Origin: Planomonospora venezuelensis
GTDB taxonomy: Bacteria; Actinomycetota; Actinomycetes; Streptosporangiales; Streptosporangiaceae
Length of the DNA stretch: 64,000 nt
NCBI RefSeq assembly: GCF_014203605.1
Contig: NZ_JACHJJ010000017.1
Location: 111,192 to 175,191, forward strand
Reading direction: 5' to 3'
Positions 3,449 to 56,898 of the stretch are shown piece by piece. How positions within the stretch are numbered: position 1 is the stretch's first letter; each line of letters starts with the position of its first letter. Position numbers and translations under genes: made by a program. A model generated the notes under the pieces. That model was not told the origin of the DNA, did not search any database, and was given only the letters and a program-made list of their open reading frames with translations.

Positions 3449-3802
3449 ATGAGCGATGAATTGGGCACCGAACGCTATCTCCGTCTCACGGTCGAGCTGA
3501 CCGTGGAGGTCCAGGACATCGGCGCCCTCCAGGCCGCCGCGCTGAAGGAGATCGAGCACCCCGACGCCGATCTGGACGACGACGAGCGCAGGGAGCAGGC
3601 GGAGATGGTCTCCGCCGACGAGACCGGCGCGACGGCGCTGCAGTGGCTGATCGAGCCGGACCACGTGCTGGGCCTGATCGAGCACGTGGACCAGGTGGAG
3701 CCCCGGGAGGCCGTGCTGGGCGTGGAGCCTTCCGACGGCCCCTCGGACGAGGACGACGAGCATGAGCACGACCACGGGCACGGCCACGGACACGACCACT
3801 GA
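3449..3802 (+). CDS. Hypothetical acidic protein with a His-rich C-terminus (..DEDDEHEHDHGHGHGHDH)
   Basis: Intact ORF with GC3-biased codons and an ATG at 3449 (MSDELGTERY..). The ORF track starts at an upstream in-frame GTG at 3428. No recognisable domain. Confidence 0.45.
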   Translation: MSDELGTERYLRLTVELTVEVQDIGALQAAALKEIEHPDADLDDDERREQAEMVSADETGATALQWLIEPDHVLGLIEHVDQVEPREAVLGVEPSDGPSDEDDEHEHDHGHGHGHDH

Positions 3803-3875
3803 CGCACCGCCGCTGGCACACAGCCACTGGCACACAGCGCTGACGCGCGTGCCCGGCCGCCGGCGTGGGCACGAA

Positions 3876-3907
3876 GGGCCGGAACCCGGACTCCCGGGTT
3901 CCGGCCC
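3876..3907. terminator. Perfect GC-rich hairpin (GGGCCGGAACCCGG-ACTC-CCGGGTTCCGGCCC) between convergent genes; likely a bidirectional intrinsic terminator
   Basis: 14-bp perfect inverted repeat with a 4-nt loop, placed between the ends of the 3449..3802(+) and 4041..4811(-) genes. Confidence 0.5.
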
Positions 3908-5071: not shown

Positions 5072-6151
5072 ATGGACGAGCGACCGACCACGCAGGACGA
5101 ACCGGGCTACGGCATCGGCGCCGTCGCACGGCGGCTCGGCGTGCCCGCCCCGACCCTCCGCACCTGGAACCTCCGGTACGGCCTCGGCCCGAGCCGCCGC
5201 AGTCCCGGCGGGCACCGCCGCTACGACGCGGGTGACCTGCGGCGCCTGGAGGAGATGAACCGGCTGATCAGGAGCGGCGTTCCGGCCGCCGACGCCGCGA
5301 AACTGGTCCTGGGCCCCGGCTTCGCCCGGAATGCGGCCGCCGCGCCCGCCCGGGAGGAGCCCGCCCACGAGGCGCCCGCCGAGGACACACCGGCCGCAGG
5401 GACAGCAGGGGAGGACGGACCTGCCGCAGGAGCGCCCGCCGAGGACACACCGGCCGCAGGAGCGTCCGGCCGGGGGGCGGAGGAGCACGGCGCACTCTCC
5501 CGGCACGCGCCCGGCCGGTTCCCCGTACCGGAGCCGCGGCACGAGGTCCCGAGCGCGGCGATGCTGGCCCGGTCCGCGATCGCCCTGGACAGTCCCGCCC
5601 TGTCCGGCTGGATCGGCGCCGCGCTGGACAGGCACGGGGTCGTGTGGACCTGGGAGCGCCTGGTGCTGCCGGTGTTCGAGACGATCTGCAGGCGCCAGGC
5701 CGCGACCGGCGCCGCCGTCGAGGTCGAGCACGTGTTCTCCGACCGGGTGCTGGCGGCTCTCATCCAGTTGGCCAGGCCGCCCCGGGCACCGGTCAACGAC
5801 CGGCCGGTGCTGCTGGCCTGCGCCGAGGACGAACAGCACAGCCTGCCGATCTACGCGCTGGCCGCGGCGCTGACCGCCGACCACCGGATCGAGACCCGCG
5901 TCCTGGGCGCCCGGACGCCCTTCTCCGCACTGTCCGGGGCGATGCGCCGCCTCGGACCGGCGGTCGTGTTCGTCTGGTCCCAGCGGCCGGAGACCGGCGA
6001 TCCCGGACCGCTCACCCGGCTGCCCGTCTCGCGCCCGGCGAGCCGCGTCATGGCGGGCGGTCCCGGATGGCAGGACGGGCTGCCGCCGTCGGTGCCGCAC
6101 GTCACGTCGTTCCGCGACGCCCTCGACCTGATCTCCTCCGCCGTGCGCTGA
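5072..6151 (+). CDS. MerR-family transcriptional regulator with a C-terminal B12-binding-like domain (LitR/CarH-like)
   Basis: N-terminal MerR HTH (YGIGAVARRLGVPAPTLRTWNLRYGL..GHRRYDAGDLRRLEEMNRLIRSG). C-terminal Rossmann-like segment VLLACAEDEQHSLPIYALAAAL resembles the cobalamin-binding E-x-H-x-x-G motif. Confidence 0.7.
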   Translation: MDERPTTQDEPGYGIGAVARRLGVPAPTLRTWNLRYGLGPSRRSPGGHRRYDAGDLRRLEEMNRLIRSGVPAADAAKLVLGPGFARNAAAAPAREEPAHEAPAEDTPAAGTAGEDGPAAGAPAEDTPAAGASGRGAEEHGALSRHAPGRFPVPEPRHEVPSAAMLARSAIALDSPALSGWIGAALDRHGVVWTWERLVLPVFETICRRQAATGAAVEVEHVFSDRVLAALIQLARPPRAPVNDRPVLLACAEDEQHSLPIYALAAALTADHRIETRVLGARTPFSALSGAMRRLGPAVVFVWSQRPETGDPGPLTRLPVSRPASRVMAGGPGWQDGLPPSVPHVTSFRDALDLISSAVR

Positions 6152-42732: not shown

Positions 42733-44505
42733 TCAGACCGCTCCGGTGAGTCCGCGCAGGGCGAGGCCCAGTCCGAGCAGGACGACGACCGCGGCGGTGC
42801 CGACCGGGGCGAGGGCCGACGCGCGGGCCGCGAAGCCCCGGCCCGCCGCCGCGAACCGGCCGGCCCTCCCGGCGAGCCTGACCAGGAGCAGCCCGGCGGC
42901 GGTGAGGGTGGCGGCCATGCCCAGGCCGTACGCCAGGACGAGGGCGACCCCGAACCAGGTGCGGCCGAGCGCGATCGAGCCGAGCAGGACGACCAGCGCG
43001 GAAGGGCTGGGCACCAGCCCTCCGGCGATCCCCATCCCCACCAGCCCGCGCCGCGAGGCCGCGGGCCGGGTCTCCGCCCCGCGGTTCCCGGCGGCCGACG
43101 CGCCGGGAGGTCCGGCGTCCGGTTCCAGCAGCGCCACGCCGCCCTCCGGGCGGGCCGCGTGCCCATGGCCGAGGTGACCGGAACCGGAATGACCGTGGCC
43201 GTGACCGTGGCCGTGCCCGTGGCCGTGCCCATGCCCGTGGCCGTGGCCGTGCCCGTGGCCGTGCCCGGGCGCCTCTCCGGTGCGGTGGGCGCGCCAGGCC
43301 GTCCGGAGGAGGCCCGCGCCGACGGCGGTGATCAGCAGGCCGCTGACCAGGCCGAGCCAGGCCAGTACGGCCTCCCCGGTGAGGAAGGAGAAGACGCTCA
43401 GCAGCAGCCCCACCACCAGGACGCCCAGGGTGTGGGTGACGGTCACGGTGGCGCCGACGACCAGCGCGTCCCGGGGGCGGCCCCGCCGCCCGGCCAGGTA
43501 GGCGGCCATGATGGTCTTGCCGTGGCCGGGGACGAGCGCGTGCCCGGCGCCGAGGAGCACGGCGATGCCCACCGCGAGCAGGCCGAGCGGGACCGTCGGC
43601 GAGCCGGTGCCGATCAGCCCGGTGAAGGCCCGGTCCAGCGCGGCCAGCGCGTCCCCGGCCGGCCCCGGCAGGCTCGGCCGGGGCACGGCCGGAGACGGTC
43701 CGGTGCCGGGGCCGGTTCCCGTTCCGGCCCCGGCCGCGGAGCCGCTCCCGTCCCCCGGCCCGTCCCCCGGCCCGGTCCCGGGCCGGACGACCAGCCGCGC
43801 CGTCCGCTGGTCGAGCGGAGCGGCCAGCAGGTCGTCCGGGTAGCTCCGCAGCCGCCCGCTTGTGCTCGTCTCCGGCGCCGACGACTCCGCCAGCCGTACC
43901 CCGCCGCCCGCGACCGCGGTGATCTCCCGCCAGCCGAGCCGGTCGGCGAGGAAGCCGTCCTCGAACCCGACCGTCTCCGGCCCGGTCACGGGCGCGGCGA
44001 GGGAGCAGGTCAGGCGGCTGGTCTCCAGGCCGCCCTGGCCGGGCTCGTAGCCGAACTCCGAGGAGGCGACCCGCCAGGCGACCGCCGTCCCGTTCACGGT
44101 CAGCCGCTGCGCGGCGGCCAGCTCCGCGCAGCGGGCGGCGCCGTACGCCGACCGCTCAGGCGGCGAGACCGTCCCCGACCGGTCGCCGTCCACCGCGGGA
44201 CGGGTCTGCAGGGTGGGCAGTTCGGCGCTGTCGACGACGGCGAGGTTCTCCACCCGGTCCGGGGCGACCGTCAGGCCGTTGTAGTGGTTGACGGTGAAGT
44301 TGCCCAGCGGGTGCGCGGCGACGGGCGGGAGCACGGCGCTGACGTGCGAGGACACAGCGGCGAGCGGGAGCACAGCGGCGGGCCGGAGCACAGCGGCGGC
44401 GCGGGGAGGCCCGGCGGCGGCCTGCGACGCCGGGGCCGCGAGCGCCGTGCACAGCGCCGCGAGGCCGGAGGCCGCGACGAGGCGGAGGACCGTTCTGCGG
44501 ATCAT
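42733..44505 (-). CDS. Fusion of a secreted N-terminal domain (DUF1007-like?) to a NicO/RcnA-family nickel/cobalt transporter with a (His-Gly)n loop
   Basis: Signal peptide MIRRTVLRLVAASGLAALCTALAAPASQA. C-terminal 6-TM domain with the NicO signature GHALVPGHGKT and the loop HGHGHGHGHGHGHGHGHGHGHGHSGSGHLGHGH. ATGA overlap with the upstream TPR gene. Confidence 0.7.
   Translation of the reverse strand: MIRRTVLRLVAASGLAALCTALAAPASQAAAGPPRAAAVLRPAAVLPLAAVSSHVSAVLPPVAAHPLGNFTVNHYNGLTVAPDRVENLAVVDSAELPTLQTRPAVDGDRSGTVSPPERSAYGAARCAELAAAQRLTVNGTAVAWRVASSEFGYEPGQGGLETSRLTCSLAAPVTGPETVGFEDGFLADRLGWREITAVAGGGVRLAESSAPETSTSGRLRSYPDDLLAAPLDQRTARLVVRPGTGPGDGPGDGSGSAAGAGTGTGPGTGPSPAVPRPSLPGPAGDALAALDRAFTGLIGTGSPTVPLGLLAVGIAVLLGAGHALVPGHGKTIMAAYLAGRRGRPRDALVVGATVTVTHTLGVLVVGLLLSVFSFLTGEAVLAWLGLVSGLLITAVGAGLLRTAWRAHRTGEAPGHGHGHGHGHGHGHGHGHGHGHGHGHSGSGHLGHGHAARPEGGVALLEPDAGPPGASAAGNRGAETRPAASRRGLVGMGIAGGLVPSPSALVVLLGSIALGRTWFGVALVLAYGLGMAATLTAAGLLLVRLAGRAGRFAAAGRGFAARASALAPVGTAAVVVLLGLGLALRGLTGAV
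43141..43270 (-). repeat. (GTGGCC/GTGCCC)n coding microsatellite that encodes the (His-Gly)n tract of the transporter
   Basis: About 20 near-identical hexamers in tandem; a candidate for slipped-strand length variation. Confidence 0.6.
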
Positions 44506-45836
44506 GAGAACCTCGCGAGGGCGGGCAGGCGGGGGGAGAAGGCCGGGTCCGCGGCGCGGGCCGCGGCGGCGGAGCGCTCGGCCCGCCGGGTGAGGCCCAG
44601 GGCGCGCTCGATCTCGGCGCGGTGGTGCAGGAGCAGCGCGTGGCGCCAGCCGGTCGCGGTGGCCTCGCGCGCGTACGGCAGCGCCTCCCGGCTCCGGCCG
44701 TCCCGGTGCAGGGCCCAGGCCAGCGCGTCGGCGGCGACCGCGCCCGGCGCGCGGGCGTACTCGGCCCTGGCGTGCTCGACGGCCCGGGCGGGAGAGCCGT
44801 GGTCGGCCTCGTACTCGGCCCAGGTCAGGTCGTCGCGCACCCCCGCGCCCGCCATCAGGTCCCGCTGCGCCCGCAGCAGCGCCCACTGCCCGGACGGGTC
44901 CCCGCCCGAGGCCATGATCACCTCGGCGTACTCGACCGTGTACTGGGGCAGCGGGAGCCGCTCGACCACGGTCGCGTACAGGTCGAGCGCCTCGGCCGTC
45001 CTGCCGCCGAGCGCGGCGGCCCTGGCGGTCCCGGCCAGTGCGGGGGTGAACTCCGGCGCCGCCCGCAGCGCCAGGCGGTACTGCTCGGCGGCGCCGGCCA
45101 GGTCGCCGGAGTGCAGGGCGAGCTCGCCCAGGTGGTAGTGGCAGTAGGCGACGTCGGCGGGGGCGAAGGCGTCGTCGAGGGCGTGGACCAGCAGGCGGCG
45201 GGCCCCGTCCCGGTCGCCGCGGAGCTCGGCCGCGTAGGAGGCCCTCGTGAAGGCCGCGACGCCCGGCCGCAGCTCCGTCATCCGCTTGATCGCCCGCTCC
45301 GCCTCGCCGTACCGGCCGAGCTGGATGTAGGCGTCGGCCAGCACCGCCTGGGCGCCCGCGCCGTAGGGGTTCGCCCCGGCCGACAGCCGCGCCAGCCGTA
45401 CCGCCCCGGTGAAGTCGTGCCGGGCGGCGGCGAGCGCGGCCTGGCCGGTCAGCGCGGCGGAGTTGCCGGGGTTCAGCGCGGCGGAGCGGGCCAGCGCCTG
45501 CTCGGCCTTCGGGTAGAGGGACGGGTCGGCGGTCAGGCGGGCCTGCTGGACGTAGGCGGCGCCGAGACTCGCCCAGGCCTGGTCGTCGCCGGGCAGGCGG
45601 CGGAGCCTGGCGGTCAGCGCGGCGATCGCGTCCCGCAGCGAGACGGCCGAGACGGGCGTCTCCACGGGCTCGCGGACGGCCGCTCCCCTGGCGGGCGCGG
45701 TGGCGGGAGGCGGCACCGGCTCGCCGGGGACCAGCGCGGCCCCTGCGGTCAGCGCCCCGGCCAGCGCCAGGGCGGCGATCCCCGCCCTGGCGGAGGGCCT
45801 CGTGGAAAACCTCATGGAAGTCCTCGTGGAAGTCAT
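44502..45836 (-). CDS. Secreted tetratricopeptide-repeat (TPR) protein
   Basis: Signal peptide (MRFSTRPSARAGIAALALAGALTAGAA), then TPR-like helical repeats (..AWASLGAAYVQQARLTADPSLYPKAEQALARSAALNP..). Start at the internal ATG at 45836 (MTSTRTSMRF). Confidence 0.65.
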   Translation of the reverse strand: MTSTRTSMRFSTRPSARAGIAALALAGALTAGAALVPGEPVPPPATAPARGAAVREPVETPVSAVSLRDAIAALTARLRRLPGDDQAWASLGAAYVQQARLTADPSLYPKAEQALARSAALNPGNSAALTGQAALAAARHDFTGAVRLARLSAGANPYGAGAQAVLADAYIQLGRYGEAERAIKRMTELRPGVAAFTRASYAAELRGDRDGARRLLVHALDDAFAPADVAYCHYHLGELALHSGDLAGAAEQYRLALRAAPEFTPALAGTARAAALGGRTAEALDLYATVVERLPLPQYTVEYAEVIMASGGDPSGQWALLRAQRDLMAGAGVRDDLTWAEYEADHGSPARAVEHARAEYARAPGAVAADALAWALHRDGRSREALPYAREATATGWRHALLLHHRAEIERALGLTRRAERSAAAARAADPAFSPRLPALARFS

Positions 45837-51094: not shown

Positions 51095-52327
51095 TCAGGT
51101 GCCGGTCCGCCGCGGCTCCGGCTCTGCCGGGACCGCTCCGATGTCGCGCACGTCGCGCACGAGCAGCAGGGCGAGGGAGGGCAGCAGCTGGCAGAGGAAG
51201 GCGACCCACAGCGCGTTGTGCAGGCCGAGTCCCGTGTGCAGCGCGGGGACGAGGAGCAGCCCCAGCGGGTAGCCCGCGTAGGAGCCGAGCCACTCGTAGG
51301 AGCTGACCCTGGAGAGCCGGTCCTCCGGGATGTGCCGCTGGAGCGTGGTCTCCCACAGGGTGTTGGAGACCATCAGGGAGACGCCGCCCAGGAAGGCGAC
51401 CGCGGCGACCCCGGCCGCCGGTGCGCCCAGCGCGAGCAGGAGGAGCTGGAGCGGGAAGACCAGGTCCCAGCAGACGGCGGTGCGCAGCGGATGGACCGGC
51501 TTGACGGCCAGGGCGAGCGCGCCGCCGGCGATGGACCCCGCCCCGAAGCAGGCGAGGATCAGCCCCCAGGCGCCCGCGCCGCCGAGGGCCGCGGTGGCGG
51601 CCACGGGGCCGAGCACGTGCAGCGCGGCCTGCCACATGTTGACCAGGGAGGCCGCCCCGATGAAGCTCCAGACCCAGCGGCGCGCCCGGAACTCCCGCCA
51701 CCCCTCGGCCAGGTCGCGCAGCATCCGGGTGGCGGGCAGCGGCTTGGCCGGGAGCCGGAGCAGGCCGAGGAAGGCCGCGCTGGCGGCGAAGGTCGCGGCG
51801 TCCACCGCGATGGCCCAGCCCGCTCCGGCGGTGGCGACGAGCAGGCCGGCCAGGGCCGGTCCCGCGACGTAGGCCGCCGACTGCGCGAACCCGCGCAGCG
51901 CGTTGGCGTCCTGCAGGCTCTCGGTGCCGACCGTCTCCCGTATCAGCCCGCTGACCGCGGGGGTGAACAGCGCGGAGGCGCCGCCGTGGACGAACTGCAG
52001 GGCCGCGAGCATCCACACCTGGGCATGGCCGGTGAGCAGGAGCGCCGCCATGACGCCCTGGCAGGCGAGACGCGCGAGGTCCGCGCCGATCATGACGGCG
52101 GTGCGGGGCAGCCGGTCGGCGAGCACCCCGCCGAGGAGCATGAACGCGATCAGCGGGACCGTGCGCGCGATCAGGACCAGGCCGAGGTCCGCGGCCGAGC
52201 CCGTCAGGCCGAGCACGGCGAACGCGAGCGCCACCGGGGCCATCATGTCGCCGAGCTGGGAGGCGGACTGCCCCAGCAGGAACCAGCGGAAGTTGCGCTC
52301 GCCCAGGACCCGGAGTCTCTGCTTCAT
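51095..52327 (-). CDS. MFS transporter
   Basis: 12-TM pattern and an MFS motif-A-like GGVLADRLPRT; ATGA overlap with the upstream PLP-enzyme stop. Confidence 0.8.
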   Translation of the reverse strand: MKQRLRVLGERNFRWFLLGQSASQLGDMMAPVALAFAVLGLTGSAADLGLVLIARTVPLIAFMLLGGVLADRLPRTAVMIGADLARLACQGVMAALLLTGHAQVWMLAALQFVHGGASALFTPAVSGLIRETVGTESLQDANALRGFAQSAAYVAGPALAGLLVATAGAGWAIAVDAATFAASAAFLGLLRLPAKPLPATRMLRDLAEGWREFRARRWVWSFIGAASLVNMWQAALHVLGPVAATAALGGAGAWGLILACFGAGSIAGGALALAVKPVHPLRTAVCWDLVFPLQLLLLALGAPAAGVAAVAFLGGVSLMVSNTLWETTLQRHIPEDRLSRVSSYEWLGSYAGYPLGLLLVPALHTGLGLHNALWVAFLCQLLPSLALLLVRDVRDIGAVPAEPEPRRTGT

Positions 52328-53292
52328 GCTTCCCCGCGTACGGTCGGCCAGCGTTCCCCGTCGGAGGTGTGCAGTTCCTCAAGGCGCAGCACGAGCGGGC
52401 ACACGTGGGCCGGGAGCAGCCGCAGCAGGCCGCCCGGGTGCGGTGAGGCGGCCGAGGGCGCCTCACCGGGGAACGCCCGCCCGTCGGGGAACGTCGCGGT
52501 CTCCGGGCTCCAGGGCTGGTGCAGCCCCTCGGTCAGCTCCGCCGCCGCGGCGGCGGGGACGTCGATCCCGACGGCGACGTCCTCGAAGCGGCAGACGCCC
52601 AGGCGGGCCAGGCCGGCGTCGCACAGCGCGTAGGCTCCCGCGCCGATCTCGGTGACGCCCGCGACCGTCATGACCGCGCGGGCGGCCGGTGTCCCGCCGA
52701 CGGCCACGACCGGGCACTCCAGGCCCTCGGCCCTGAGCGCCTCGGCCGCCGAGACGGTGCGGGCCGCCGCCGTACGGCCGATCCGGTCGCGGTCCCGGGC
52801 CTCCTCGGGACCGGTGAGGTCCGCGTACCCGCTGACTCCGCCGAGCCGCAGCCCCGCGGTGCAGGCCGCCCGCCGGGCGATGCCCGCGGTGTCGACGCCC
52901 GGTTCCACGACGGCGCGGACGCCGATGACGGCGCCGTGCGCGCGGGCGGCGCGGCCGAGCTCCGCCACGGTGTCCACGTCGTCGACGTGCAGGGAGAGCC
53001 TGCAGGAGCCTGCCACGCGGGCCAGCGCCGTCAGCCGCTCCCGGTCCCGCCAGGGCCAGGCCACCACGATGTCCTCGAACCCGGCCCCGGCGTAGTGCCG
53101 GGCCTCGCCCACCCTGGTGACGGCGATGCCGCCGGCGCCCGCCCGGACCTGGCGTCCGGCGATGCGCGGAGTGCGGTGCCCCTTGACGTGGGCGCGCACC
53201 GCCACGCCCGCGGCGGCGGCCGCGTCGTGCAGCCGCCGGATGTTGGCGTCGAGGCGGGCGACGTCCACATGGGCCGAGATCACCGGGCTCAC
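52324..53292 (-). CDS. PLP-dependent alanine-racemase-fold (DSD1/YBL036c/D-threonine-aldolase-like) enzyme
   Basis: N-terminal TIM-barrel with the PLP-lysine context AVRAHVKGHRT. GTG start overlapping (GTGA) the stop of the SagB-like gene; 322 aa. Confidence 0.6.
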   Translation of the reverse strand: MSPVISAHVDVARLDANIRRLHDAAAAAGVAVRAHVKGHRTPRIAGRQVRAGAGGIAVTRVGEARHYAGAGFEDIVVAWPWRDRERLTALARVAGSCRLSLHVDDVDTVAELGRAARAHGAVIGVRAVVEPGVDTAGIARRAACTAGLRLGGVSGYADLTGPEEARDRDRIGRTAAARTVSAAEALRAEGLECPVVAVGGTPAARAVMTVAGVTEIGAGAYALCDAGLARLGVCRFEDVAVGIDVPAAAAAELTEGLHQPWSPETATFPDGRAFPGEAPSAASPHPGGLLRLLPAHVCPLVLRLEELHTSDGERWPTVRGEA

Positions 53293-54428
53293 CCGAGCCC
53301 GTCCCAGGCGTCCGCGGGCGAGGAGAAGGCCGCCGGACCGCCGTCGGCCATCGCGCGCTGCCGCCGTGCCTCCTCGTCCGTCAGGACCCCCACCCCGGTG
53401 AGACCGAGGAAGACCTCCTCGGTCCAGGAGACGCCCAGCGCCTCCTCGACGAGGGCGTCCCGGGTGGCGGCCGTGAAGAACACGCCGAGGCCCAGGGCCG
53501 TACCGACGAGGTAGGCGTTCTGGCTGACGTGCCCGAGGTCGAGGTGGAGGCTGCCGTAGCTGCGTCCCGTCGGGTACTTCCAGGCCGTGCGCTCCAGGAC
53601 CGCCGTGTACAGCAGCAGTACTCCGGCGTTCGCGACGAAGGTCTGGTCCCCGCACCAGCGCAGCAGCTCGTCTCCGGCGGGCGGCGCCGCGGGGAGCGCT
53701 TCGAGGGCGTGCTCCCCGGGCGCGTAGCGGTAGATTCCCGGCTCGATCCCGGCCACGTTCACGACCAGGGGATAGACCTCGATCGGATGGCACGAGCCGG
53801 CGGAGGGCACGGCCTTCAGGACGGCCGTGCCGAAGTCCCCCAGCCCGACCCGGTGGAGCGGGCGGGCGGTCCAGTGCAGCAGGGCGGCGAGCGCGGCGAG
53901 GGGAACCGGCCGTCCCGGATCCAGGCGGCGTCCGGTACGGCGCCGCCGCAGCGCCTCGGCCAGGTCCATCACCGGCGGGGGCGGCTCGGGCAGCGGGAGG
54001 AGCGTGCCGGTGGCCGGTCTGCAGGGCGGGGGGCGGACCGCCGCGTGGTCGCGGAGCCGGAGCGTGTCCTCCGCGGCCGACAGGTACCTCGTCGTCTCGT
54101 CGGTCCGGGCCGCGAGGTGGTAGTGGGTGGCGGCCGCGCCCCAGCGGCGCCACACGTTCCGCTCCTCCTCCACGCGGTGCTCGGCGGAGCCTTCCACGAC
54201 CAGGATGCGCCTGCCGAGGAGCTGCTCGGCCAGGGTCCGCCGCGGATCGTCGAGGGTGCCGGGGTCGACCCAGTCGCGGAGCCGCTGGAGGAGCTCCCAC
54301 GCCGGCTCCCGCAGCGCCACCTGGCGGCCGTGCAGCGGGATGTCGCAGATGAGCTGGCCGTCCCGCCACTGGAAGAAGACGTACCGGGAAACGCGTAGGC
54401 GCACCTTTTCCGAGGCCCTCCTCTTCAC
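53289..54428 (-). CDS. SagB-type dehydrogenase / nitroreductase-superfamily protein
   Basis: C-terminal nitroreductase-fold signature VLKAVPSAGSCHPIEVYPLVVNVAGIEPGIYRYAP, then ..NAGVLLLYTAVLERTAWKYPTGRSYGSLHLDLGHVSQN..; 379 aa. GTG start as in the ORF track. Confidence 0.65.
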   Translation of the reverse strand: MKRRASEKVRLRVSRYVFFQWRDGQLICDIPLHGRQVALREPAWELLQRLRDWVDPGTLDDPRRTLAEQLLGRRILVVEGSAEHRVEEERNVWRRWGAAATHYHLAARTDETTRYLSAAEDTLRLRDHAAVRPPPCRPATGTLLPLPEPPPPVMDLAEALRRRRTGRRLDPGRPVPLAALAALLHWTARPLHRVGLGDFGTAVLKAVPSAGSCHPIEVYPLVVNVAGIEPGIYRYAPGEHALEALPAAPPAGDELLRWCGDQTFVANAGVLLLYTAVLERTAWKYPTGRSYGSLHLDLGHVSQNAYLVGTALGLGVFFTAATRDALVEEALGVSWTEEVFLGLTGVGVLTDEEARRQRAMADGGPAAFSSPADAWDGLG

Positions 54429-54590
54429 CCGGCCACCGTCCGGACCGGGTGCTCCCCGACGGGGCGAACGGCGGAACCGGGTGGAGAGCGCCGACGGCCT
54501 CCGCCCGGAGTCAGCACCGTCCTGCCCCGACCGGTGAAGAGGGTCCCGGAAGGGATCGGCGGCGGAAACGCCCTCCGGCTGCCGCCGGAC

Positions 54591-54698
54591 CTACGACGGG
54601 GCGACGATCAGAGCGATCTTGCAGCTCTCGGGCATCGCGTAGTCGTCCTCGTACGGAGCCTCGAAAGCCGGGACGTCGTTGTGCTCTGCCACAGGCAC
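54591..54698 (-). CDS. Candidate precursor-peptide sORF (35 aa: VPVAEHNDVPAFEAPYEDDYAMPESCKIALIVAPS)
   Basis: GTG start 6 nt after a perfect AGGAGG, strong GC3 bias, acidic leader-like N-half and hydrophobic Cys-containing C-half; 162 nt upstream of the SagB-type gene on the same strand. An in-frame ATG 18 nt upstream is an alternative start. Confidence 0.4.
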   Translation of the reverse strand: MPVAEHNDVPAFEAPYEDDYAMPESCKIALIVAPS

Positions 54699-54906
54699 GG
54701 TGTGCCTCCTTCGCATCGAGCGCGCAATACTCCCTGAATAATGCCACCCACCCGAACAGAGTCAACGGTAACTATTAGCGGCCAATAACAACACAGCGCA
54801 ACAAGCGCATTTTCCAATAGTCATAGCGGCCATTTCGGTACGCCCGGATCCCGTCCCGCCGCGCACGGCCCGGCGGGGGCCCGCCCGTCCGAGGACCGGG
54901 GCGGGC
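54699..54906 (-). promoter_or_regulatory. GC-depleted island (..GAATAATGCCACCCACCCGAACAGAGTCAACGGTAACTATTAGCGGCCAATAACAACACAGCGCAACAAGCGCATTTTCCAATAGTCATAGCGG..); candidate promoter for the sORF-dehydrogenase-PLP-MFS unit
   Basis: The longest AT-rich stretch in the window, immediately upstream of the sORF. Confidence 0.4.
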
Positions 54907-55677
54907 TCAGGCCTCGCGCACCGGCAGGAGCGCCGGCCGTTTGGCCACGCGGCCGTCGCCCGACGAGCGTCCCCGCAGCCGCCGCACCAGCCACGGTGTC
55001 AGGAACGTCCCGGCCCAGGACAGCTCCGTCCACGCACGCCGCCACGGCGGTGGCGGCGGCAGCGGCGGCAGCGCGTCGCTCCAGGAGGCGTCGCTGCCGG
55101 GCAGTTCCAGAGCATGGGCGACGGCCGCCGCGATCCGGGCGTGGCCCAGCGGCGTGGCGTGGATGCGGTCGGTGCTCCACAACCGGGCGTCCGCGGTGAC
55201 CTCGTAGGCGAAAGCGTCCACGACCAGGACGCCGTGCCGGGCCGCCGCGCCCCTGATCCGCTCGTTGAAGTCCAGCAGGCGCGGCCGCAGGTGCCGGACG
55301 AGCGGCGCGATCCGCGCGATGTCGGGGAAGGTGAAGGCGACCACCCTGGCGCCGGAAGCGGTGAACGCCTCGAACATCGCCTCCAGGTCCGCCGTCACCG
55401 CCTCGACGTCGAACCCGGGCCGGACGAGGTCGTTCATCCCGGCCATGACCGTCACCAGATCCGGCTCCAGGGCGAGCGCCGCCGGCAGCTGACCGGCCCG
55501 GATCTGCCCGGCGCGCTGGCCGCGCACGGCGAGGTTGGCGTAGAGGAGACCGGGATTCCGCACGGCCAGCGACTCGGCCAGCCGGTCCGCCCAGCCCCGG
55601 TAACCCGCCCGGTCGTCACCGTCGTTCAGGCCCTCGGTCTGACTGTCCCCGACCGCCACGTATCTCAGGAACCCCAT
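54907..55677 (-). CDS. SGNH/GDSL-family hydrolase
   Basis: Block I YVAVGDSQTEG and block V DRIHATPLGHARIA; start at the internal ATG (MGFLRY). Confidence 0.75.
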   Translation of the reverse strand: MGFLRYVAVGDSQTEGLNDGDDRAGYRGWADRLAESLAVRNPGLLYANLAVRGQRAGQIRAGQLPAALALEPDLVTVMAGMNDLVRPGFDVEAVTADLEAMFEAFTASGARVVAFTFPDIARIAPLVRHLRPRLLDFNERIRGAAARHGVLVVDAFAYEVTADARLWSTDRIHATPLGHARIAAAVAHALELPGSDASWSDALPPLPPPPPWRRAWTELSWAGTFLTPWLVRRLRGRSSGDGRVAKRPALLPVREA

Positions 55678-55783
55678 CGGCCGCCTCCACCCATCCATAG
55701 TCAATTATATGAATATTACCTGGTATGACTAACGAACGTCCTCCATGACCGCGTCGATCCTGCGAGTGCCCGTCCACGTTCGA

Positions 55784-55805: not shown

Positions 55806-55840
55806 TTATGATGGGAGAGGCCGAGCCGAGGGGGAGAGAC

Positions 55841-56116
55841 ATGGCGGGATACACCCACAACAGGCAGGACCACCTGCGGCGGCTGCGCCGCATCGAGGGC
55901 CAGGTGCGCGGCCTGCAGCGGATGGTCGACGAGGACAAGTACTGCATCGACATCCTCACCCAGGTCTCGGCGGCCAACCGGGCCCTGCAGTCCTTCGCCC
56001 TGGCCCTGCTGGAGGAGCACATGGCGCACTGCGTGGCCGACGCCACCGCCAAGGGCGGCGCCGAGGCCAAGGTCAGGGAGGCCGCCGACGCCATCGCCCG
56101 CCTCGTCCGCTCCTGA
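55841..56116 (+). CDS. csoR: CsoR/RcnR-family metal-sensing transcriptional repressor
   Basis: RLRRIEGQVRGLQRMVDEDKYCIDILTQVSAANRALQSFALALLEEHMAHCV: conserved Cys...His...Cys metal ligands in a DUF156 helix bundle; 91 aa. Confidence 0.85.
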   Translation: MAGYTHNRQDHLRRLRRIEGQVRGLQRMVDEDKYCIDILTQVSAANRALQSFALALLEEHMAHCVADATAKGGAEAKVREAADAIARLVRS

Positions 56117-56295
56117 GACGACACCGGGACGCTCCGCGTCCCGGGTTCACCGGCCGGACCGCGGGAGGACCGTACGATGGGGCCGGTAACGGGGCCGGCA
56201 GGCGTGATCGGCCCCGGGGCGCCGGGGGCGGCGGCGCACGCGCCGGGGCGGCTGGACCGCGGGCGGGGACACGGACGAACCGGAGAGAGACCACG

Positions 56296-56898
56296 ATGTT
56301 CACCGATCGATCCACCGTGCGCAGGATCGCGCTGACCGCCGCGGCGGGGGCCGGCGCCCTGACGCTGCTCGCCGCCTGCGGCGGCGGTGATCGGCCGGCG
56401 GCCGACGGCGGTCCCACCGCGAGCGTGCAGCCGTCGGCCTCGTTCAACGACACCGACGTCGCCTTCGCCCAGATGATGATCCCGCACCACCGGCAGGCCG
56501 TGGAGATGGCCGAGCTGGCCGGCACCCGGGCGGCCGACGCGGAGGTCAAGGCGCTGGCGGCGAAGATCAAGGCCGCCCAGGACCCGGAGATCGCCACCAT
56601 GACCGGCTGGCTGGCGGCGTGGGGCAGGCCCGTCGAGCCCGGTGAGGGGCACGGCGGCCACGGCGTGGCGGGCATGACGTCCGAGGACGACATGGCCGCG
56701 CTGGAGCAGGCCAGGGGCGCGGCCTTCGACCGCATGTTCACCGAGCTGATGACCGCCCACCACCAGGGCGCGATCGAGATGGCCAGGACCGAGCAGGCCC
56801 GGGGCGCCAGCCCCGAGGCCAGACAGCTCGCCAAGACCATCGAACTCGCCCAGCAGGCCGAGGTCGATCAGATGAGCCAGCTCATCGACCGCCTCTGA
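56296..56898 (+). CDS. DUF305-family lipoprotein, usually copper-associated
   Basis: Lipobox LTLLAACGG and duplicated DUF305 helices (DVAFAQMMIPHHRQAVEMAE.. and FDRMFTELMTAHHQGAIEMAR..). Confidence 0.75.
   Translation: MFTDRSTVRRIALTAAAGAGALTLLAACGGGDRPAADGGPTASVQPSASFNDTDVAFAQMMIPHHRQAVEMAELAGTRAADAEVKALAAKIKAAQDPEIATMTGWLAAWGRPVEPGEGHGGHGVAGMTSEDDMAALEQARGAAFDRMFTELMTAHHQGAIEMARTEQARGASPEARQLAKTIELAQQAEVDQMSQLIDRL

Follow-up and report, generated by a model that had tools for sequence, protein, structure and literature searches.

SagB-type dehydrogenases are the textbook partners of YcaO cyclodehydratases. In McbC, which has the same flavin mononucleotide (FMN)-binding nitroreductase fold as SagB, a Lys201-Tyr202 pair abstracts the C-alpha proton of an azoline while hydride goes to FMN (PMC6395948). 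We analysed a stretch of 64,000 nucleotides from Planomonospora venezuelensis (contig NZ_JACHJJ010000017.1, positions 111,192 to 175,191), hereafter the window, in which the gene for a SagB-family enzyme lies behind a small open reading frame (sORF). The product of the sORF is an acidic peptide of 35 amino acids (aa), which its sequence and genomic context suggest is probably the ribosomal precursor, and thus the substrate, of a four-gene operon of an uncharacterised family of the ribosomally synthesized, post-translationally modified peptide (RiPP) type. The unit occupies ~3.7 kb of the minus strand in the order sORF, FMN dehydrogenase, pyridoxal phosphate (PLP) enzyme and MFS_3 pump:

54705..54710, minus strand: Shine-Dalgarno (SD) sequence AGGAGG, 6 nt 5' of the GTG start of the sORF
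54591..54698, minus strand: sORF, 35 sense codons followed by a TAG stop (54593..54591)
53289..54404, minus strand: SagB-family FMN dehydrogenase, 371 aa (PF00881; TIGR03605), start GTG at 54404
52324..53292, minus strand: fold-type III PLP enzyme, 322 aa (Ala_racemase_N), whose GTG start overlaps the dehydrogenase stop (GTGA)
51095..52327, minus strand: MFS_3 efflux transporter (EntS/Tet(V)-like), 410 aa, whose start overlaps the PLP gene stop (ATGA)

Both overlaps span 4 nt. Like the azoline dehydrogenases of thiazole/oxazole-modified peptide (TOMM) systems, the window enzyme adjoins a small peptide gene. However, the cassette differs from TOMM and linear azol(in)e-containing peptide (LAP) systems in that no YcaO or E1-like cyclodehydratase is conserved with it, and neither was called within 6 kb of it, where the scope of the search was the locus rather than the whole genome. 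The peptide differs as well, with a single invariant Cys and no Cys/Ser/Thr-rich core, and the dehydrogenase stands apart from azoline dehydrogenases through its constant partner, the PLP enzyme.

We found ~45 homologues of the dehydrogenase at 46-62% identity, all from actinomycetes. This clade is separate, as identity to the next relatives is at most 38%. Scanning one genome per species yielded 35 loci, which comprise 29 with a member of the close clade and 6 with distant relatives (33-38% identity). Using tblastn of the peptide followed by a motif scan, we detected a same-strand sORF directly upstream of the dehydrogenase orthologue in 27 of the 29 close-clade loci, which span at least six genera (Streptomyces, Micromonospora, Sphaerimonospora, Phytohabitans, Streptacidiphilus and members of Streptosporangiaceae). 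The earlier note on this DNA, which was made from the letters alone and had suggested this search, held that stops, frameshifts, or a missing SD or start codon in orthologues would speak against its sORF; the gene is intact in those 27 loci, and the claim survived. A small ORF beside a modifying-enzyme gene, in an arrangement kept across genomes, is the pattern by which RiPP precursors are recognized, and these loci display it. In the first of the two exceptions, L008, the contig ends 67 nt upstream of the dehydrogenase gene. The second, L022, is rearranged: it holds the sole complete cassette without a detectable peptide gene (L022:3824-7164), its PLP gene has moved upstream, and an ORF resembling FMN-dependent alpha-hydroxy-acid dehydrogenases ends just 5' of its SagB gene.

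When the window proteins were searched against the loci by tblastn and the ORFs were clustered, conservation across genera was limited to the sORF and the genes for dehydrogenase, PLP enzyme and MFS pump. The all-against-all clustering revealed no YcaO, protease or regulator shared across genera, and further synteny was genus-specific. The GDSL lipase, dioxygenase, methyltransferase and DUF305 genes that neighbour the cassette in the window are not kept with it in other loci.

The peptides of this family are 26-45 aa long and follow the pattern AFE-x4-[DE][DE]Y-x5-C-x-x-P, after which come 2-8 variable residues. The Tyr and Cys, which correspond to Tyr20 and Cys26 of the window peptide, are invariant, and every member but that of the window carries Pro at C+3. 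The position before the invariant Cys holds T, S, H, F or Y; in a few members the tail contains one or two additional Cys, and many members contain Pro-Pro. The orthologous sORFs almost always start with ATG, and GGAG, GAGG or AGGAG precedes the start by 5-11 nt in nearly all of them, L019 being the exception. The distance from the sORF stop to the dehydrogenase start ranges from 2 to 186 nt with a median of 21, and the window spacer is the longest. In 13 of 28 loci the gap is only 2-9 nt and the dehydrogenase gene shows no SD of its own among the 15 nt that precede it, which suggests that dehydrogenase translation there would depend on translation of the sORF through coupling. In two Streptacidiphilus loci (L006:5620-5760 and L016:5530-5700), a second, tandem sORF lies just 5' of the family sORF (MSDIRTRREIEIGIDREVEEIGIDRIEGEIPGIDIEDARIRRTI; MSEIRNRRELELGIEIGIDGIEETRIERIEGDLGIDGIESRIIRSI); these retain the N-terminal half and lack the Tyr...Cys motif, and each may represent a degenerate copy or a further peptide.

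We compiled a profile from 25 peptides found in other genomes and ran it against the 972 six-frame segments of the window, where the sORF was the sole match (E = 3.7e-5; next best E = 11). Searched against all six frames of loci L001-L042, the peptide profile returned one match per locus, located before the SagB orthologue, with no off-target at E < 1. Among 1.84 billion representative proteins, an exhaustive profile search gave 24 matches at E <= 0.001, of which ~23 are family members, i.e., short actinomycete-type peptides carrying the same motif. The family is thus rare, with ~23 clusters in that set. The codon-substitution check proposed in the earlier note gave a usable answer only within Micromonospora, where the ratio of nonsynonymous to synonymous change per site (pN/pS) was 0.15 among 11 sequences, which indicates that the peptide is under purifying selection in this genus; between genera, synonymous sites are saturated, and an unaligned figure labelled 'Strep31' is void because of an indel. 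Ten family peptides were compared with the Pfam and NCBIfam models and gave no match up to E <= 10, and the database copies are all labelled 'hypothetical protein'.

Within the window, the sORF translates as VPVAEHNDVPAFEAPYEDDYAMPESCKIALIVAPS, and its product is written (M)PVAEHNDVPAFEAPYEDDYAMPESCKIALIVAPS. The arrangement described by the earlier note, AGGAGG-CACACC-GTG with 35 sense codons and TAG, was found exactly, with CACACC as the spacer between AGGAGG (54710..54705) and GTG (54698..54696), and the strand, which had been left unstated, is the minus strand. We also found the alternative in-frame ATG 18 nt upstream of the GTG, at 54716; it overlaps the SD region and would add MRRRHT to give MRRRHT-VPV.... 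The high GC at third codon positions likewise held, since GC by codon position is 0.69/0.37/0.83, a periodicity like that of the neighbouring genes (0.78/0.53/0.94 for the SagB gene). The sORF had been called unlisted, which needs a small correction, since public annotation contains this 35-aa product, started at GTG, as 'hypothetical protein FHS22_004839 [Planomonospora venezuelensis]' (P0066). The part of the window from 50 to 60 kb is overlapped by 72 ORFs with a length of 30 aa or more, in DNA of ~74% GC. Because GC-rich DNA is full of ORFs of this size, length says little and the sORF is by size alone not beyond chance; conservation is what makes it a real gene. Taken together, the sequence comparisons show that the sORF is a genuine small gene, conserved and equipped with translation signals, at the head of a tightly coupled operon whose enzymes have kept their catalytic residues. 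No second precursor copy occurs in the window.

The earlier note portrayed the peptide as an acidic leader followed by a hydrophobic core with a single Cys. This description applies in part, as only the window peptide ends in the hydrophobic KIALIVAPS, and all other members have C-x-x-P and a short variable tail. Its proposal that the sORF encodes a RiPP-type precursor directly 5' of a modifying enzyme is supported by the 27 intact loci and by the downstream gene, which encodes a SagB-family peptide dehydrogenase whose N-terminal domain appears ThcOx-like.

Two further features flank the sORF:

54738..54765, minus strand: putative promoter-like site, TTGACT-16 nt-CATTAT with an upstream TG, by sigma-70-like consensus match alone
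54405..54590, minus strand: GC-rich structured spacer of 186 nt between the sORF and the dehydrogenase gene (minimum free energy -121.6 kcal/mol, z = -2.5)

The promoter-like sequence occurs once, compared with 0.1 expected in shuffles, and sits inside a GC dip (0.56 at 54680-54799 versus ~0.74 around). It is not the only such dip nearby, contrary to the earlier note, as a further one lies ~1 kb away (55640-55759, GC 0.53). The spacer shows no codon periodicity (GC by position 0.76/0.69/0.77) and holds nothing peptide-like. Its length follows from the dehydrogenase start: the ORF list begins this gene at GTG 54428 (MKRRASEK...), whereas the homologues (MRLRVS) and the public gene call favour GTG 54404 (VRLRVSRY...). 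An Rfam scan of 54200-55000 gave no family (sul1 at E = 0.64, which is chance level), and no intrinsic terminator was found.

The dehydrogenase passed the cut-off of TIGR03605, the SagB domain (114.1 bits versus 78.4). Its best-scoring named full-length family is TIGR04511, 'putative peptide maturation dehydrogenase' (SagB_rel_DH_2), which is itself uncharacterised; the score of 172.2 bits over residues 38-350 falls below the cut-off of 240, which makes the enzyme a non-member. The predicted structure (AlphaFold; predicted local distance difference test, pLDDT, 84.7) gave ThcOx (373 aligned columns, including the N-terminal domain) and the nonribosomal peptide synthetase (NRPS) thiazoline oxidase BmdC as the best Foldseek matches, and the AlbAB filament appeared at rank 31. 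ThcOx is thus the best full-length match, with its N-terminal winged-helix domain included. The motif W-K284-Y285 (379-aa numbering) is invariant in 22 homologues and in HMMER alignments coincides with WKY of ThcOx and CyaGox and PKY of BmdC, so that the window enzyme shares both the FMN nitroreductase fold and the aligned Lys-Tyr motif with SagB, McbC, BcerB, ThcOx, CyaGox and BmdC. The N-terminal ~90 aa are predicted to form four short strands and then helices, including H41-49, H61-72 and H82-88, and this domain contains many invariant residues, several of them basic. The structural model weakly suggests that it is a winged-helix domain resembling a RiPP recognition element, as in ThcOx.

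The PLP enzyme was modelled with a pLDDT of 95.3 and a template-modeling (TM) score of ~0.8 to 3wqc and 4pb5, and among solved structures it is closest to D-threo-3-hydroxyaspartate dehydratase, D-threonine aldolase and D-serine dehydratase. Its PLP lysine (RAHVK) and H-x-C metal motif (PAHVCP) align with K43 and H351/C353 of 3wqc, and neither varies among the 28 complete cassette homologues with readable columns. It therefore shares the fold, the R-x-H-x-K lysine and H-x-C with the D-Ser and D-threo-3-hydroxyaspartate dehydratases (DSD1 type), whereas D-threonine aldolase has H-x-D. In contrast to all of these relatives, it is ~60 residues shorter in the C-terminal domain and has no PF14031 match. 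The clade is sharply apart from generic family members, with E-values that fall from 1e-44 to 1e-19 at its edge, and its members always occur in the peptide cassette. As the NCBIfam equivalog BhcC scored 93 bits against a cut-off of 690, the enzyme is not an equivalog of BhcC. Public records call members of this clade 'alanine racemase', a name that is probably wrong, because the closest solved relatives and the H-x-C motif are those of D-Ser/D-threo-3-hydroxyaspartate dehydratases.

Distant relatives of the dehydrogenase occur in other small cassettes. Loci L027, L028 and L031 encode a SagB-like protein (33-38% identity) within cassettes of an ATP-grasp ligase, the SagB-like enzyme, a JmjC oxygenase and an MFS_3 pump, and ATP-grasp loci with a SagB-like nitroreductase appear as 'branch 6' in a graspetide survey (PMC8939145). 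These cassettes resemble that of the window in the N-terminal domain of the SagB-like enzyme, the pump and an upstream acid-Tyr peptide, and they differ in that the ligase and the oxygenase replace the PLP enzyme and the peptides, which lack Cys, end in KKD[DN]. The peptides, of which MEEIAKLVLAGSAEGGALGEYAREYAGVSPNHDKKDN is an example, have a doubled Glu-Tyr motif (GEYAxEYA) and lie at L027:4750-4870, L028:4720-4830 and L031:4800-4920 (...ALGEYAREYAGVSPNHDKKDN; ...ALAEYAAEYATAGKVFRSKKDD). In Kutzneria (L029:5870-5990; L032 and L033 at ~5900-5990), very short sORFs beginning MDEFVDT abut a distant SagB-like gene (33-37% identity), and the ORFs downstream of it had no Pfam match in L029, the only locus tested. 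The metagenomic locus L038 encodes an 80-aa peptide (3657-3899; ...MAGYWYAGDTCCV, ending GYWYAGDTCCV) directly 5' of a 307-aa SagB-like protein, which is 38% identical to that of the window and adjoins an ABC exporter with a C39 peptidase. The one feature that all these peptides have in common is a Tyr or Phe preceded by an acidic residue or an acidic pair; of the proteins, only the SagB-like enzyme is shared, together with the pump in one case. Since this motif and this enzyme are what the cassettes share, we infer that the acid-acid-aromatic motif would belong to the SagB-like enzyme, as recognition or target, and the Cys-x-x-Pro part to the PLP enzyme. A metagenome scan for further sister cassettes gave one distant, uninformative locus, and the contexts of P0048 and P0049 were likewise uninformative.

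Based on these comparisons, we propose the following course for a pathway in which the peptide is the substrate. As sequence and conservation show, the peptide is translated from an SD and a GTG of its own. Just as leaders are bound by RiPP recognition elements, the basic N-terminal winged-helix domain of the dehydrogenase may bind the acidic AFE-x4-[DE][DE]Y segment, a proposal made because of the fold, the weak matches to the ThcOx domain and charge complementarity. The FMN domain, which keeps the Lys-Tyr pair that removes the C-alpha proton in azoline oxidases, would then, with neither a cyclodehydratase nor prior heterocyclisation, carry out a two-electron C-alpha/C-beta dehydrogenation at or beside the invariant Tyr or Cys. 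Cyclodipeptide oxidases of the nitroreductase fold (AlbA/AlbB) act on aromatic residues in this manner. The Tyr seems at least as likely as the Cys to be the target or recognition residue, because the acid-acid-aromatic motif is the sole feature shared with the sister-cassette peptides. More speculatively, the PLP/metal enzyme could perform a second step of beta-elimination type tied to the Cys-x-x-Pro part. The MFS_3 pump would export a short peptide or a peptide-derived small molecule. Hydrolysis of the resulting enamide could conceivably cleave the backbone, which would fit the absence of a protease, or a thioether ring of 7 residues could arise by addition of the Cys thiol to a dehydro-Tyr; both are speculations.

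A bolder version of this proposal, which we hold only tentatively and somewhat below an even chance, is that the sORF encodes the founding peptide of a new RiPP class, in which a SagB-type enzyme, in the absence of any cyclodehydratase, would dehydrogenate Tyr/Cys directly in analogy to the cyclodipeptide oxidases, the PLP enzyme would act at Cys-x-x-Pro and an EntS-like pump would export the product. Such a pathway could end in a crosslink derived from Tyr and Cys, or in self-cleavage in place of a leader protease. To our knowledge, the D-serine-dehydratase-type PLP fold has not been encountered in RiPP pathways.

Several observations weigh against the assignment of the peptide as a precursor. 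Fold-type III D-amino-acid PLP enzymes normally use free amino acids and are a poor fit with a peptide substrate. The cassette has no conserved cyclodehydratase, no protease and no second protein that would bind a peptide, and the canonical SagB substrate, an azoline, is therefore without an obvious source. Matches of the N-terminal domain to the Pfam ThcOx model PF22767 are sub-threshold (E 0.007-0.09), and the chemistry at Tyr and Cys is something that we infer throughout. No peptide gene is detectable within 6 kb in L022, and the window peptide is an outlier of its family, given its lack of Pro at C+3, its longer hydrophobic tail and its distance of 186 nt from the enzyme gene. Finally, pN/pS between genera is 0.86 for the whole peptide and 0.68 for the core, values that are uninformative because of the saturation noted above and because the peptide also evolves fast.

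Other roles for the sORF must be weighed against that of a precursor. It could act not as a substrate but as a regulatory leader or arrest peptide, or as a coupling upstream ORF that controls the downstream enzymes and the pump, perhaps by stalling at the conserved C-x-x-P or at Pro-Pro on a small-molecule cue, like TnaC or the Erm/Cat leaders. We consider this unlikely, although the sORF is short and heads an operon that ends in a drug-efflux-like pump, its residues at fixed spacing (Y-x5-C-x-x-P) and many Pro-Pro are patterns that arrest peptides show, the spacer behind the window sORF is strongly structured, and the tight spacing to SagB in many loci implies translational coupling. Gaps of 2-9 nt, as in 13 of the 28 loci, leave no space for alternative RNA structures, the spacer is kept in neither length nor sequence, and neither an Rfam element nor a terminator was found. 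Moreover, the adjacent enzyme belongs to a peptide-acting family and has a ThcOx-like domain, the sORF is the sole conserved candidate for the peptide substrate that it needs, and in each of the related cassettes a different small peptide accompanies the SagB-like enzyme. Much the same low probability attaches to the idea that the peptide works unmodified, as an acidic Cys/Tyr metal-binding peptide or as a subunit, chaperone or inhibitor of the dehydrogenase or PLP enzyme, while the enzymes convert free amino acids into a small molecule. The preference of the PLP enzyme's family for free D-amino acids, the export of small molecules by EntS-type MFS_3 pumps, the lack of a conserved protease and the very acidic peptide with one Cys and a conserved Tyr would all fit, as would the copper-related genes (CsoR-like, DUF305) that adjoin the cassette in the window genome. 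However, those CsoR-like and DUF305 genes are not conserved with the cassette, a C-terminal tail that varies beside a Tyr and a Cys that do not is typical of a substrate and not of a folded partner, and SagB-family enzymes with the Lys-Tyr pair are known only on peptide-bound or carrier-bound substrates (PMC6395948).

The earlier note had seen in the window peptide a faint E-x-x-x-Y likeness to PqqA. On such a reading, a Glu and a Tyr of the peptide would become joined by a crosslink and be cut out as a quinone-type cofactor. The small size of the peptide, the acidic residue beside its invariant Tyr and a modification region that is conserved and not hypervariable, as is typical of cofactor-type RiPPs, are in keeping with such a precursor, and the likeness to the PQQ pathway extends to a small acidic peptide with a conserved Tyr. 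The spacing itself did not hold up across the family, as position Y-4 is occupied by V, L, I, A, S or Y with no conserved Glu and the pattern is [DE][DE]Y-x5-C. As the earlier note had already remarked, PqqB-E homologues are missing: no radical-SAM PqqE, PqqB, PqqC or separate PqqD was called within 6 kb or is conserved across the loci. In addition, no PqqA match in Pfam or NCBIfam appeared at E <= 10, and the efflux pump points to a secreted product. With motif, PqqB-E and family match all absent, we rejected the identity of the peptide as PqqA, and a cofactor precursor of this kind is very improbable. Least credible of all, to the point of being negligible, is a chance ORF with a fortuitous SD in GC-rich DNA. 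The abundance of ORFs of at least 30 aa over these 10 kb (72) would allow it, but the same peptide family occupies the same position in 27 loci of six or more genera, where start codons, SDs and reading frames are undamaged, the independent profile recovered it at E = 3.7e-5, and both purifying selection in Micromonospora and GC periodicity at third positions contradict it. A precursor peptide thus remains our preferred reading of the sORF.

We also compared the cassette with published descriptions. Full-text literature searches, which included the peptide motifs, found no description of it; subscription journals lie mostly outside their coverage, and prior characterisation is possible. Neither Pfam, NCBIfam nor a paper in the literature covered describes the peptide. 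Within that literature, the locus therefore appears to be a RiPP-like cassette built around a SagB-family enzyme whose partner set and peptide family have not been described before. Because no curated model of the peptide exists, standard annotation renders the peptide as 'hypothetical' and the PLP enzyme as 'alanine racemase'. A dehydrogenase clade that always occurs with a Tyr/Cys peptide, a D-amino-acid-type PLP enzyme and a pump, and never with a cyclodehydratase or protease, points to undescribed chemistry for both enzyme families, and the minimal cassette is present in culturable Streptomyces and Micromonospora strains and is open to heterologous expression.

Elsewhere in the window, genes for a CsoR-type metal-sensing repressor (PF02583) and a DUF305/DUF4142 protein lie on the plus strand at 55808-56898, just past the upstream GDSL lipase gene; both are copper-associated families that are not kept with the cassette in other genera. 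On the minus strand at 42733-44886, the ORF listing contains a long membrane-protein ORF with a (His-Gly) repeat, GHGHGHGHGHGHGHGHGHGHGHGHGHS, which resembles a metal-transporter loop.

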